From NCBI GenBank assembly GCA_950079155.1, contig CATMWH010000002.1:14929-78928 (forward strand): a stretch of DNA of 64,000 bases, written 5' to 3'. Origin of the DNA: an uncultured Christensenella sp. (GTDB lineage: Bacteria; Bacillota; Clostridia; Christensenellales; UBA3700). Of the stretch, positions 44,429-52,321 are shown in pieces. Position numbers and translations under genes: made by a program. Under the pieces are notes generated by a model, which worked only from the letters and a program-made list of their open reading frames with translations, ran no database searches and was not told the DNA's origin. How positions within the stretch are numbered: the stretch's first letter is position 1; each line of letters starts with the position of its first letter.

Positions 44429-45451
44429 TTAGTTTGTTTTCCGCATTTGCGATATTGTTTCTTCGCTTACCTTTCCCATTAGGCAACCTTCGTCCCAACA
44501 CTCAAAGTCGTCAAACAATAGTAGTTTCTTATCTTCCTGTCCTATCGTCGTTACCACGTCGTCGTCCATTATGTCAGATATGAAATATTGGTACATTCCT
44601 TTGCTGTACACTATTCGCTCTCCGCTCTTTTCAATGTACTTCATTAGATAAGCAAGCGACTCACCGAGTTTATGCTTATTCAATTCTTTGAAATCGTTTC
44701 GACCGAAATTCTCCGTAAAGTATTTGCATTGCAAACTCTCCTGCATTTTGTGATTAGGCTTTGAATAGTCCTTTACCACTTCCATATCGCTCGGTATCGT
44801 TCCATCCGGAATGTGAAACAATCCGTGAAAGTGCAACCGATTCTTCTCTGGCGAACGTTCCCATACGCCCATATACTTCCAACCTTTTCTATACGCCAAT
44901 AGCGACAACTTGTTTTTCAGTTTCTTCCTAAACGTATCTTCCGTATGCAACTTATCGTTGTACGTGAACGTGCAAAAATAATTAAAGTTGGCAAGATGAG
45001 CCTTTCTCGACATTCGCACTCGCCTACATATCAAATTGCGTTGCTTGCGCTCCAAATTTTCATTGACGTACTCTTTCGCCTTTTCTTCGCTATCGAAATA
45101 CGGCAACATATCTTTTAGTATTTTTCTTTGCCGTTCCGCCTTTTTCAAACTTAAATACTCTTTATACAACTGCTCGAACAATTCCTTTCGCGTCATTCTC
45201 CGCTCGACGGACTTTTCGCTTACGTTGGATTGCTTTTCTTCTTTCTCCGTATCTTGTTGTTCTTCGCTGTCGAATAAATTAGTCAAAGGCTCGTCCACCT
45301 TTTCGGTTTCCGAGCCTTCTTCTTTTTCTTTCTCAACAACGGTTATTTGTTCTTCTACAATGATTCGCCTTCTTTTGTTCTTGCGTTCCGTATGCGGAAT
45401 GGCTATGTAATGACTGCCGTCGTAGTAGACTTTCGCTTCGGCGTATGCCAT
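44429..45451 (-). CDS. HUH-superfamily rolling-circle replication initiator (Rep1)
   Basis: Motif I NYFCTFTY, motif II RLHFHGLFHI (HUH), motif III LAYLMKYIEKSG (Tyr). Paralogous to 58572..59465 (shared YYDGSHYIAIP and RKGWKY.G.WE). Confidence 0.8.
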   Translation of the reverse strand: MAYAEAKVYYDGSHYIAIPHTERKNKRRRIIVEEQITVVEKEKEEGSETEKVDEPLTNLFDSEEQQDTEKEEKQSNVSEKSVERRMTRKELFEQLYKEYLSLKKAERQRKILKDMLPYFDSEEKAKEYVNENLERKQRNLICRRVRMSRKAHLANFNYFCTFTYNDKLHTEDTFRKKLKNKLSLLAYRKGWKYMGVWERSPEKNRLHFHGLFHIPDGTIPSDMEVVKDYSKPNHKMQESLQCKYFTENFGRNDFKELNKHKLGESLAYLMKYIEKSGERIVYSKGMYQYFISDIMDDDVVTTIGQEDKKLLLFDDFECWDEGCLMGKVSEETISQMRKTN

Positions 45452-45492
45452 AATCTTTGTTCACGCAAAGACCTAACCGCTATTGTTTTGCC

Positions 45493-45723
45493 CTACTTCT
45501 TTTTAGATTTTTTGTTAATCTTCTTGAAATACTTGGGCGTGTTTTGATAAAGGATTGCGCGCTCGTAATCTTTATGTACTTTCATTATTTTTTTCAAAGT
45601 TTTCTCGTCACCGTCAAATGACGCCATTCTCATGTCGTAATCGGTGTCAATGTAGCCGTTCTCTAATTTTCTAATTGAATTATTACAAGCCATACGCTTT
45701 TGTTTTGCAGTAAAAAATCCCAC
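45493..45723 (-). CDS. Small basic protein (76 aa)
   Basis: ORF track. Lys-rich C-terminus KKINKKSKKK. Confidence 0.5.
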   Translation of the reverse strand: MGFFTAKQKRMACNNSIRKLENGYIDTDYDMRMASFDGDEKTLKKIMKVHKDYERAILYQNTPKYFKKINKKSKKK

Positions 45724-45725
45724 GC

Positions 45726-45977
45726 TTATTTACCCCCTTTTTTAGATTTTTTGTTTTTCCTATTTTTCTTCCGCTCCGCTTTCTTAAAGCGTCTTTGGAA
45801 TTTTCTATCTTCCTTGTCTATACGCTTAAATGCCTTCTTCATGTTCTTGTAAATATAATTCAGTATCCTCATATTGAATTTGTCCGGAACGTAGTCGGCG
45901 GTATCAAGCGTATGCGAGAAAGTTTCGTAGTATCTTACAAGACACTCGTTTATGAGTTTGTTTTTGTTGTAATTCAT
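45726..45977 (-). CDS. Small basic protein (83 aa)
   Basis: ORF track. C-terminus RRFKKAERKKNRKNKKSKKGGK. Overlaps the upstream stop by 1 nt. Confidence 0.5.
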   Translation of the reverse strand: MNYNKNKLINECLVRYYETFSHTLDTADYVPDKFNMRILNYIYKNMKKAFKRIDKEDRKFQRRFKKAERKKNRKNKKSKKGGK

Positions 45978-46801
45978 TATGCAACTTTCCCCCTTTTTTG
46001 GAAAAAGTGCTCTGGCAATTCGTCGTCATTTTCTTCAAGGTAACGTATGTATCCTTCAAGCGATTGCTCGGTTGGCTCGGATAAGTTGTAATCAAAATCT
46101 TCATTGAAATGCCCTTGATAAAATTTGGGTTTACAGCATTGGCTGTCATAACAACTGAATACGTTGTAATCGGCTGTTACTATCTCCGTTGTAAAACAAG
46201 ATTTATCCTGCTTGCCGCTTGCCATATACTTATCAAACAATGAGCTATTGTCTATCCTACGCGTAAGCCATTTAAGCCTACAGGGATTGCCAAAGCAATC
46301 ATATTCTTTATCCAACCTTACTATCTCGACGAATTGCGAGAGTTCCCTTATGTTGACGTCTATCAACATAGGTCTTTGCGTATCCAAATAGATATCCAAG
46401 TTATTGTGTCCGTGTTGCTCGTACCATCGGCTTTGCCAATCCGGATAATACATTGACAGTCTACTATTCAGATATTTTTGTGCTTCAGTTATGCAAATGA
46501 CTTCGTGCGGCAAGTTAAAATGCGTTTCCACAAAGGGATTGGCAAAGCCTAGCCTATATGGATTGATTCGGCGGTTAAAACGGGGACTATACCTATGGCG
46601 TCTAAACGTCATATCGTAATTTGCCGATACACAATGCGTCGGTATAGTCTTGATCCCGTCAAAACCACTATTCATTTTCGCAACTATTTCTCTTGCCATT
46701 GCCCTATTACGTTCTCTATCAAACGCAAAGCCATTAGCAACGTGCGTCATATAACACGTCTTGCCTGTGCGTGGCGGTGCGAAAATTATTGTTATCATCA
46801 A
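45977..46801 (-). CDS. Zot / inovirus pI-like P-loop ATPase (no TM segment)
   Basis: Walker A FAPPRTGKT; Walker B-like VICITEAQ; HGHNNLDIYLDTQRPMLIDVNIRE resembles the Zot-family rHhGwDiilitQ.p..id..iR motif. 4-nt overlap with the upstream gene. Confidence 0.65.
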   Translation of the reverse strand: MMITIIFAPPRTGKTCYMTHVANGFAFDRERNRAMAREIVAKMNSGFDGIKTIPTHCVSANYDMTFRRHRYSPRFNRRINPYRLGFANPFVETHFNLPHEVICITEAQKYLNSRLSMYYPDWQSRWYEQHGHNNLDIYLDTQRPMLIDVNIRELSQFVEIVRLDKEYDCFGNPCRLKWLTRRIDNSSLFDKYMASGKQDKSCFTTEIVTADYNVFSCYDSQCCKPKFYQGHFNEDFDYNLSEPTEQSLEGYIRYLEENDDELPEHFFQKRGKVA

Positions 46802-51563: not shown

Positions 51564-51597
51564 TTCTATTCTCCTATCTTTTCAATTACTGCCATCA

Positions 51598-51656
51598 TAT
51601 AAAAAGCCCCGACGACAGTAACCCATCTAACTTAATGAGCTACTGTTCGTAGGGGC
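51598..51656 (-). terminator. Intrinsic terminator / attenuator between the Zn-ribbon gene and the HTH gene
   Basis: Minus strand: gcccctacgaacagta-(20 nt)-tactgtcgtcggggc, followed by ttttta. Confidence 0.6.
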
Positions 51657-51772
51657 CATACTTTGTATGCCGGTGGCACGAACCTTATCTAGATTGTATT
51701 GAGTAGGATTTACGGATCTTGTCTACCTAACTGTGCAACATAGACGAACATATTTATTTGTTACTTATTTTA

Positions 51773-51937
51773 TTATGATTTTACTATTCGTATTATCCTT
51801 TCTTTCTCCGAAGATTGCTTTGCTATAATAACCGAATTACATTTCTTGCAACAGCCTTTCGCTTCGCTGTTCTCGCCTCTCGTAACCATTACATAGTTCA
51901 AACATTCAGGACATTTAATTCGTTTGACTCGATTCAT
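51773..51937 (-). CDS. Small zinc-ribbon protein (54 aa)
   Basis: CPEC...(17 aa)...CKKC. Start at ATG 51937 after AAGGAGA. Confidence 0.5.
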   Translation of the reverse strand: MNRVKRIKCPECLNYVMVTRGENSEAKGCCKKCNSVIIAKQSSEKERIIRIVKS

Positions 51938-52132
51938 ACGACTATCTCCTTTTCCCATAAATACGTCAAGTTTAGATTTAACTTACTGCCATTGCAAGGT
52001 TGGGAGAGCCGGTGCGGAAGTAAACTATCTTTCGTATTCTCTATGCGTTGACTTATTCAAATCTTTGCTTACCCTAAAATTGTAAACAAATGTTCATATA
52101 TTGTCAAGACTTTTTATGAACATTTTTTATAT

Positions 52133-52321
52133 CTATGGCGGTTGTCCAAAATTATTCCCATCTTGCTTACTTTGTTGGTTTTTATAATAATCTCTAATTT
52201 CCAATTCCAAAATTGCCACAAACAAATCTTTTTCTTGTTTAGACATAAGACTAAACAACGGCGTTCCATCTACACAGACTTTATGTTTATAATTCTTGCC
52301 TTCACTTATAATTTCTTTCAT
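52133..52321 (-). CDS. Hypothetical small protein (62 aa)
   Basis: ORF track. AAGGAGA RBS. Confidence 0.45.
   Translation of the reverse strand: MKEIISEGKNYKHKVCVDGTPLFSLMSKQEKDLFVAILELEIRDYYKNQQSKQDGNNFGQPP

Follow-up and report, generated by a model that had tools for sequence, protein, structure and literature searches.

An integrated element on the filamentous-phage plan, without a recognisable coat gene, in gut Christensenellales: a putative temperate single-stranded DNA lineage

What kind of genetic element combines a rolling-circle replication protein with a Zot-like ATPase, in a gene order reminiscent of filamentous phages, and encodes no recognisable coat protein? The question is raised by a locus within a 64,000-nt stretch of DNA from an uncultured Christensenella sp. 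(assembly GCA_950079155.1, contig CATMWH010000002.1), hereafter the window, whose positions serve as element coordinates throughout. A preliminary description of this DNA had proposed an unclassified inovirus-like lineage that integrates through a serine recombinase, and had stressed two departures from inoviruses: the missing coat gene, and a Zot-like protein without a transmembrane (TM) segment. Our analysis favours, with a probability of about 0.55, an integrated, apparently functional temperate single-stranded DNA (ssDNA) element on the filamentous-phage (inovirus/Tubulavirales) plan, with a non-canonical particle. Gene content and homologies, covarying hairpins, the distribution of the family, circular relatives and purifying selection are what the data show directly. 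Stand-alone Zot proteins were already known in Firmicutes gut inoviruses, and the real puzzle is the missing coat.

The integrated element begins near 44,244 and reaches 54,943 or beyond, a length of ~10.7 kb. The content attributed to it earlier stood, while the coordinates given (44429-52321) were too narrow on both sides: hairpins at 44244-44431 have to be added on one side, and the recombinase and its terminator, up to ~54943, on the other. At the left end (~44244), conservation among loci stops right after ...TCA. On the right, the element ends somewhere past the terminator of the recombinase (54943), and the sequences 3' of the recombinases of relatives gave no consensus. A direct-repeat search of the element found no att sites, as expected for a serine recombinase. 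Fourteen co-oriented genes occupy ~8 kb of the minus strand, with the recombinase divergent. In order of transcription they are g62, g61 (Zn-ribbon), g102, g53, a sigma-70 region-4 protein, g73, g123, g119, then a terminator, g361, g471, the ATPase, g83, g76 and Rep. The minus-strand order claimed previously (regulators, three small proteins and a terminator, a 361-aa and a 471-aa protein, the Zot-like ATPase, two basic proteins, Rep) was therefore correct in every item; one gene model changed, since the small gene g123, taken to encode 123 aa, has its real start at ATG 50079 and encodes 106 aa, according to the family alignment and its ribosome-binding site. An AGGAG-type ribosome-binding site precedes nearly all element genes, and g361, g471, ATPase, g83 and g76 are tightly packed, with intergenic gaps of 11, -4, -1 and 2 nt. 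None of the nine element proteins tested carries a name in NCBIfam, and no lysis genes were seen among the Pfam matches of element proteins. The features on which the argument rests are the following.

44244-44314, minus strand: hairpin 2 and left end of the element (inverted repeat I6, 95% complementary; fold z-score; covariation)
44347-44431, minus strand: hairpin 1, directly 3' of the Rep stop codon (inverted repeat I7; consensus structure)
44429-45451, minus strand: Rep, HUH rolling-circle replication initiator, 340 aa (PF23343 and motifs)
45493-45723, minus strand: g76, small basic protein, isoelectric point 9.9 (conservation in related loci and selection, given below)
45726-45977, minus strand: g83, isoelectric point 10.2 (same evidence)
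45977-46801, minus strand: soluble Zot/pI-like P-loop ATPase, 274 aa (Walker A APPRTGKT; Walker B ICITEAQ)
46798-48213, minus strand: g471, with signal peptide, variable ectodomain, conserved C-terminal TM hairpin and basic tail (hydropathy; C-terminal alignment)
48225-49310, minus strand: g361, N-terminally anchored or secreted, with a weak Ig-like signal (hydropathy; homology)
49335-49377, minus strand: Rho-independent terminator after g119 (RNA fold of -26.6 kcal/mol, then U6)
49381-49740, minus strand: g119, conserved beta-rich protein (beta3-alpha, twice; conservation and selection)
49759-50079, minus strand: g123, 106 aa, helical and basic (isoelectric point 9.5), with conserved motif LRSGYLQCQSDHAG (conservation)

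The ATPase matched PHROG 197 ("Zot-like toxin") with an E-value of 4.3e-12. Its best PDB sequence match was 2r2a_A (E 1.3e-4), in an alignment that covers Walker B and the H-x-H / TQRP motifs behind it; we take 2r2a to be the N-terminal domain of a Neisseria Zot. The element thus encodes a morphogenesis ATPase of the pI/Zot type, as a divergent member. As first described, this 274-aa protein has no TM segment (maximal 19-residue hydropathy 0.78). This is not the departure from inoviruses that it had been taken for: the trait is family-wide, the 230 full-length members measuring 241-313 aa (median 273 aa), and a stand-alone Zot domain has been published for all Firmicutes-targeted gut inoviruses (PMC8530359). 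We note a related locus of a different build, L088 (MT835493.1, "Bacteriophage sp.", 57 kb, human faeces), where one 714-aa protein (5814-7958, minus strand) replaces ATPase, g83 and g76. It has several N-terminal TM helices, a P-loop (GSMGKKKT) and motifs that look Zot-like by eye (AITE...TDEQRP); homology to Zot was not significant by hhalign, and the protein could represent a membrane-anchored counterpart of the soluble ATPase.

Rep matched the Pfam family PF23343 (REP_ORF2-G2P) above the cutoff (E 1.7e-10), and the motifs FCTFTY, HFHGLF (HUH) and YLMKY (two tyrosines, Y-x3-Y) can be read from its sequence. Its closest annotated relatives are replication initiators of Microviridae (28-33% identity), which have the two-tyrosine active-site motif; no other gene is in common with Microviridae, and no capsid of their type (jelly-roll F/VP1) matched in Pfam or PHROGs. 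The Pfam family is named after ORF2 of the Spiroplasma virus SpV1 (Plectroviridae) and phage G2P, and with Plectroviridae, too, the element has no other gene in common.

The DNA around the 3' end of Rep (44225-44440) folds into two strong hairpins (z = -7.9), and in an alignment of 24 loci 25 of 39 hairpin pairs showed compensatory changes on both sides. Hairpin 2 (arms 44249-44267 and 44296-44314) has an inner mini-hairpin and then an invariant unpaired ACTTGTATCA ahead of its 3' arm. Its motif TCAAGACAAG is present at a single site in the window and was found in 54 of 168 loci; at the loci inspected, it sits just 3' of a Rep of the window type, including in L085, a contig without recombinase. 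Because the motif accompanies Rep even there, we read hairpin 2 as the origin of Rep rather than as attP, that is, as the predicted nick site and candidate plus-strand origin; ACTTGTATCA resembles the CTTG/ATA nick sites of phiX174/pC194-type origins. Hairpin 1, in which the loop GGAAAGCCTGCGC is conserved and the stems vary, could serve as minus-strand origin or as packaging signal.

Between g119 and the ATPase lies a hypervariable cassette, whose large proteins, here g361 and g471, are secreted or anchored. The latter has a signal-like N-terminal segment and a hydrophobic C-terminus (hydropathy maximum 3.36 at residue 401), and its stop overlaps the start of the ATPase by 4 nt. It is 38% identical over its full length (2e-92) to a 541-aa protein of bajarodino virus 12 (PQ006185.1), a 9,828-nt circle from rodent faeces filed as Inovirus. 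No Pfam or significant PDB match was found for g471, which resembles a pIII-type adsorption/anchor protein in architecture only. g361 carries an N-terminal TM segment (hydropathy 3.06) and is 28% identical to the "major tail protein" of the same virus. In relatives, the cassette proteins carry adhesin-type domains (LRR_5, Flg_new, coiled coils), as one would expect of proteins that recognise the host. We also considered whether the C-terminal hairpin of g471 could be released through an in-frame start inside the gene (TTG codons 387/390); this was unconvincing, with a GGAG just 3 nt upstream.

How widespread is this element? A genome scan with one genome per species found the family in 158 species genomes, nearly all of them Christensenellales or unclassified Clostridia metagenome-assembled genomes (MAGs) from the guts of mice, ruminants, chickens and humans. 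Among the carriers, three have been cultured (Pumilibacter muris, P. intestinalis and Anaerocaecibacter muris); the Pumilibacter isolates, P. muris CLA-AA-M08 (L011) and P. intestinalis CLA-AA-M10 (L027), harbour elements of the window's type that lack the 52-aa ORF discussed below. As gut bacteria, Christensenellales are both heritable and associated with health. At least 819 homologues of the ATPase were found (90% clustering), the best 120 measuring ~257-291 aa. Across 83 loci, the core consists of the ATPase (83), g83 (80), Rep (54), g119 (44), g123 (37) and g76 (32); g471 and g361 occur in 19 and 11. The g83 protein has a conserved ~60-aa N-terminal domain and a K/R-rich tail of variable length, and its gene always directly follows that of the ATPase, with a 1-nt overlap. 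Elements of ~8-12 kb are common in Christensenellales and in related Clostridia, whose animal hosts include mice, ruminants, birds and humans, yet they are nearly absent from IMG/VR. We found no paper on Christensenellales inoviruses, Christensenellales phages or bajarodino viruses. As a whole, this is a widespread, coherent and undescribed family of gut Clostridia; its circular relatives measure 9.8-12.6 kb. If the elements are active, chronic infection without lysis, and gene flow with it, would be going on unnoticed in the gut.

The shortest of these circles, bajarodino virus 12, has the g361-like, g471-like and Zot-like (30%) proteins in the same order, and also lacks a small hydrophobic open reading frame (ORF). 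It differs in having a tyrosine integrase and a repressor instead of a serine recombinase and sigma-like regulators, and tblastn found in it no counterpart of Rep, g123, g119 or g83. Two metagenome contigs, L116 and L119, are circular by terminal overlaps of 127 and 43 nt (~12.6 and 11.8 kb); both encode the ATPase, g83 and a PF23343 Rep, with all genes on one strand, and an IS30-like DDE integrase. No terminal overlaps were found in MAG, Logan and ENA contigs, only two JGI/ENA metagenome contigs being circular. Since serine, tyrosine and DDE types each occur in relatives, integration enzymes have been swapped among lineages. Swapping of integrases has likewise been described for inoviruses (PMC6813254). 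Two further contigs, L124 and L134 (ERZ1090881 NODE-2192 and NODE-2198), come from one assembly, with 7.8 kb each and a coverage of 87-91x; the ~50 nt at their start and at their end are identical. Their genes are a g76-like and a g361-like gene, ATPase, g83 and Rep, without g119, g123 or integrase, and they may be high-copy episomes of a sub-lineage.

The element is under selection. Compared with its closest relative of the same layout (L004), the ratio of nonsynonymous to synonymous substitution rates (dN/dS) was 0.04-0.20 in the seven genes from g119 through Rep (g119 0.09, g361 0.06, g471 0.11, ATPase 0.04, g83 0.04, g76 0.20, Rep 0.11), indicating purifying selection. We conclude from these values that the coat-less layout itself is kept by selection. 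This raises the question of how a Zot/pI-type ATPase drives packaging or export of ssDNA in a presumably single-membrane host.

The criteria for inovirus-like sequences of Roux et al. 2019 (PMC6813254) include a pI/Zot ATPase and short coat proteins of 30-90 aa with a single TM segment. Besides the divergent ATPase, the element has a small genome of short, mostly unannotated genes on one strand and, at the sequence level, a rolling-circle Rep with a structured origin (PF23343, HUH and Y-x3-Y motifs, covarying hairpins). With the Ff-type Inoviridae (M13/fd, IKe, CTXphi) it shares a small, almost one-stranded genome, a rolling-circle Rep, no lysis genes seen and the integrated state, as well as a block of small proteins followed by a terminator, a protein with signal and C-terminal anchor at the position of pIII, and then the Zot/pI ATPase. 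It differs from them in that Rep comes after the ATPase and the origin after Rep, in its integration by a large serine recombinase, in an ATPase without TM or periplasmic part, and in having neither 30-90-aa single-TM coats nor a recognisable gVp/RstB. Closer in habitat are the "Clade-1" genomes Ino-01 to Ino-06 (PMC8530359) and the Enterocloster inoviruses (PMC10061712), which like the element belong to Clostridia of animal guts. The published gut inovirus genomes measure 5.6-9.4 kb and have variable Rep and integrase modules, and the Enterocloster phages have, as the element does, a pIII-like protein with signal peptide and C-terminal anchor. Those genomes were selected for, or shown to have, an Inoviridae-type major coat, unlike the element. 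No Enterocloster genome was among the 80 loci listed, the best of the 158, in our genome scan. In infant-gut viromes, seven inoviral family-level clades have been reported, mostly from Clostridiales (PMC10159846).

The proposal of an unclassified inovirus-like lineage is thus upheld by the combination of the rolling-circle Rep (PF23343) and the Zot/pI-like ATPase. The element shares the inovirus plan, as known from its genes and from the circular contigs of relatives; a packaged filament, ssDNA and lysis-free extrusion would be expected on that plan. It lacks, however, the small TM coat by which inoviruses are in part defined, and for that reason we do not file it as a member.

g119 gave a confident AlphaFold2 model (predicted local distance difference test, pLDDT, 91.5) and is a candidate ssDNA-binding or structural protein; a weak match to Orf1 of Propionibacterium phage B5 (E 0.06) is a lead only. 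g123 has more than 978 homologues and is a candidate DNA-coating protein. Its AlphaFold2 model is of low confidence (pLDDT 63.6), and neither a PDB sequence match nor a fold match was found for it. The terminator after g119 was missed by a consensus terminator scan, probably because its loop was read as exceeding the 8-nt limit, and was folded directly instead.

In the mechanism that we infer, which involves an ssDNA intermediate, release of a particle, and roles for all the small proteins as well as a coat of some nature, the large serine recombinase would excise and integrate the element, and regulators of sigma region-4/helix-turn-helix type would control its single-strand operon. The two-tyrosine Rep would nick the hairpin origin 3' of its own gene, probably in ACTTGTATCA, leading to rolling-circle replication, and abundant small proteins whose genes lie ahead of the terminator (g123, g119) would bind the displaced ssDNA. 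The soluble ATPase, putatively coupled in translation to g471 upstream and to the basic g83 downstream, would dock at the membrane via the C-terminal TM hairpin of g471 and power lysis-free export or assembly. The hypervariable ectodomains of g361 and g471 would recognise the host. For the particle itself we tentatively suggest, as one possibility, a lineage of Zot-ATPase ssDNA viruses whose particle has no membrane-inserted major coat: either a nucleoprotein filament of soluble, basic proteins (g123, g119, g83) capped or anchored by g471, or an enveloped or vesicular form. If a coat-free particle were true, its architecture would be new for bacterial ssDNA viruses, and it would be found in at least 158 gut bacterial species and be missed by virus-detection pipelines. 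Inovirus detectors that require small TM coat proteins would have a blind spot here.

Several results weigh against a reading on the filamentous-phage plan. The ATPase scored 18.4 bits against the Pfam Zot model, just under the cutoff of 20.3, and a profile search with it against 1.84 billion representatives gave 328 clusters (50% identity), all of them short. In IMG/VR, a scan with g471 gave no match and one with the ATPase profile a single remote match. Excised forms, for which the preliminary description had proposed to look, were found as circles of relatives; no circular or ssDNA form of the exact serine-recombinase lineage was found. No ssDNA-binding protein of gVp/RstB type was recognised: for g119, which is beta-rich and plausibly positioned for such a role, a profile search against the PDB gave no match, its assignment as an OB-fold ssDNA-binding protein found no support (Foldseek best E 0.047 in PDB and 0.0085 in BFVD, TM-scores 0.2-0.3), and its similarity to the RstB-like protein of Enterocloster was not significant by hhalign. 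As to the coat, a six-frame search of 44000-52700 for ORFs of at least 22 aa with a hydrophobic 17-mer found no small hydrophobic ORF on the coding strand, the candidates lying only on the antisense (plus) strand. The conserved small proteins of the element are all hydrophilic, the maximal hydropathy among all its small proteins being at most 1.02, so that short (30-90 aa) single-TM coat proteins are absent, and no protein of the element can be named a coat. In the secreted, experimentally validated Enterocloster inovirus (PMC10061712), a G8P-like coat is accompanied by several small TM proteins, an RstB-like ssDNA-binding protein and a pI with an N-terminal TM segment, none of which was recognised in the element. 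We infer that the coat is not a canonical membrane-inserted protein of 30-90 aa.

Relatives add a further twist. The statement that a coat gene is missing held for the lineage of the window, in which a canonical one had not been overlooked, and failed for the family: a hydrophobic ORF of 52 aa, MKKLILIILIIVLVVLVGTWPLSILAKLFEWIAYGLRWLAKMLNFFGWNGLL, which is conserved in 24 of 47 relatives, directly follows g119 there at the position of a coat gene (for example L005 5775-5936, L006 5435-5593, and 22 further loci). In the window this ORF is absent, the gap between g119 and g361 being 70 nt and filled by the terminator, which again counts against the filamentous-phage reading. A second small TM ORF, of 67-69 aa and with an acidic tail, lies ahead of the 52-aa ORF in L048, L065, L076 and L080, and a similar one is found in L116. 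Neither the 52-aa nor the 69-aa ORF matched coat models of Pfam and PHROGs above noise, another point on the same side. Among the 47 relatives, no locus combines the 52-aa ORF with a C-terminal TM hairpin on the protein encoded just ahead of the ATPase: this hairpin is found in none of the 24 loci with the ORF and in 15 of the 23 without it, and eight have neither. Homology of the ORF to the C-terminal TM region of g471 was tried and rejected (hhalign probability 14%, over five aligned columns).

The distribution of the 52-aa ORF would fit a satellite or helper-dependent element that no longer has a coat gene of its own and takes a coat, for instance the 52-aa protein, from a full family member in the same cell, keeping its own genes for replication, ATPase and host recognition. 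Coat-less satellites such as RS1 and TLC exist among the filamentous phages of vibrios, and some MAGs do contain two family members, e.g. CATLHJ01 (L024 and L049), DWVI01 (L025 and L075) and CAJUBT01 (L015 and L064). We nevertheless regard a satellite as unlikely. The coat-less layout is conserved across many species, with strong purifying selection on the whole structural module, and the exclusive occurrence of the TM hairpin looks like substitution and not loss; eight of the 47 loci have neither feature. The Pumilibacter isolates carry one short-type copy each (among the best 80 of 158 loci), and the 52-aa ORF is itself only a putative coat.

Could the particle instead be pleomorphic? DNA condensed by g123, g83 and g76 would then leave in a vesicle studded with g471 and g361, into which the ATPase loads the DNA, much as in pleolipoviruses or plasmaviruses. 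The pleolipovirus layout comprises a membrane protein, a spike, an NTPase and a rolling-circle Rep in a non-lytic genome of ~10 kb, and the element resembles Pleolipoviridae/Plasmaviridae in this layout only: a membrane protein, a spike-like protein with signal and C-terminal anchor, an NTPase and a rolling-circle Rep, in a genome of ~10 kb. Its conserved small proteins are all soluble and basic, and g471 has a Trp-rich membrane-proximal segment, whose best PDB sequence match, the membrane-proximal external and TM region of HIV gp41, was not significant (E 0.24). Searches of PHROGs, PDB and BFVD, however, gave no similarity to pleolipovirus or plasmavirus proteins. Homologues of a VP4-like spike, a VP3-like multi-TM protein and a VP8-type NTPase were not found; the element has no small or internal multi-TM membrane protein, and its ATPase is of the Zot type. 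Since budding is, moreover, not established for the hosts, presumably walled Clostridia, we find this form of particle improbable.

A non-viral origin was also raised at the outset. Here the element would be an integrative mobilisable one, with Rep acting as a relaxase-like nickase, and with the ATPase and membrane proteins moving naked or coated ssDNA from cell to cell without a particle. The absence of a recognisable capsid or coat would be explained at once, and the region is rich in genes of mobile elements, among them additional serine recombinases and, at 31.6-33.9 kb, PcfJ/PcfK-like genes. Sigma region-4 regulators and serine recombinases are, besides, common in clostridial transposons. 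Against this, no relaxase, coupling protein (type IV coupling protein), VirB4-type ATPase or other conjugation family matched among element proteins in Pfam or NCBIfam, and the marker ATPase, which is of the Zot type, was absent from the 72,556 plasmids of PLSDB, the ATPase being the one protein searched there; the match to a known plasmid or conjugative family that had been considered was thus not found. The closest annotated relatives are circular virome genomes, and the hypervariable adhesin-like proteins fit host recognition by a virion. We hold transfer without a particle to have little probability. That the locus is a decaying prophage remnant without current function, as a truncated recombinase fragment next to an intact one and the missing coat could suggest, is very improbable, with all 14 genes intact and nearly all preceded by a ribosome-binding site, dN/dS values of 0.04-0.20 and intact origin hairpins.

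The remaining features of the element, which on the preferred reading of a temperate ssDNA element would serve its regulation and integration, are as follows.

50260-52321, minus strand: regulatory or early region with g73, the sigma-70 region-4 protein, g53, g102, Zn-ribbon g61 and g62 (Pfam, PHROG, conservation in related loci)
50571-50969, minus strand: sigma-70 region-4 protein (Sigma70_r4_2, 8.2e-7; phrog_11138, 4e-25)
52824-53150, plus strand: truncated N-terminal fragment of a serine recombinase, 108 aa, a remnant (Pfam Resolvase, 3.3e-14)
53228-54943, plus strand: large serine recombinase, 560 aa (53228-54910), with a terminator at 54918-54943 (Resolvase, Recombinase and Zn_ribbon_recom)

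In the regulatory region, the Zn-ribbon of g61 is based on hints from a profile search, and the top promoter-like site in a scan was TTGACA-17-TACAAT (52107-52079). The 560-aa recombinase matched the integrase family phrog_95 at 6e-110 and keeps the same divergent position and orientation in 25 related loci, in agreement with the proposed integration through a serine recombinase. The 108-aa fragment is 43% identical to it and derives from a different serine recombinase. A third serine recombinase (543 aa, DUF4368) lies at 56489-58120 on the minus strand, bringing the number of recombinase genes to three within 5.3 kb; in L024, a homologue of this 543-aa protein adjoins a fragment of the 560-aa type. 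The cluster suggests serial or nested insertions, or replacement of the recombinase. Between the element's recombinase and the 543-aa one, a 320-aa ORF (55024-55986, minus strand; GC content 0.31) without Pfam match could belong to the element as cargo or to an insertion next to it.

Immediately to the left of the element, in a stretch of very low GC content (0.25-0.30), a possible defence gene at 40353-43994 on the minus strand encodes 1213 aa; its product begins with a calcineurin-like metallophosphoesterase, has a P-loop (GTGKST) in the middle and ends with an HD domain. The Zot element is part of an island: from a tRNA-Ser(GGA) at 28357-28446, where GC content falls from ~0.43 to 0.25-0.38, a ~28-kb patchwork of mobile or defence genes extends over 28.4-56 kb. 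The PcfK/PcfJ-like genes of this island (31.6-33.9 kb) come with a MutS_I domain, and two DNA methyltransferases lie at 36.6-38.3 kb. Two adjacent giant ORFs of 1900 and 2637 aa (4030-9732 and 9747-17660, both on the minus strand) are found in the higher-GC part of the window.

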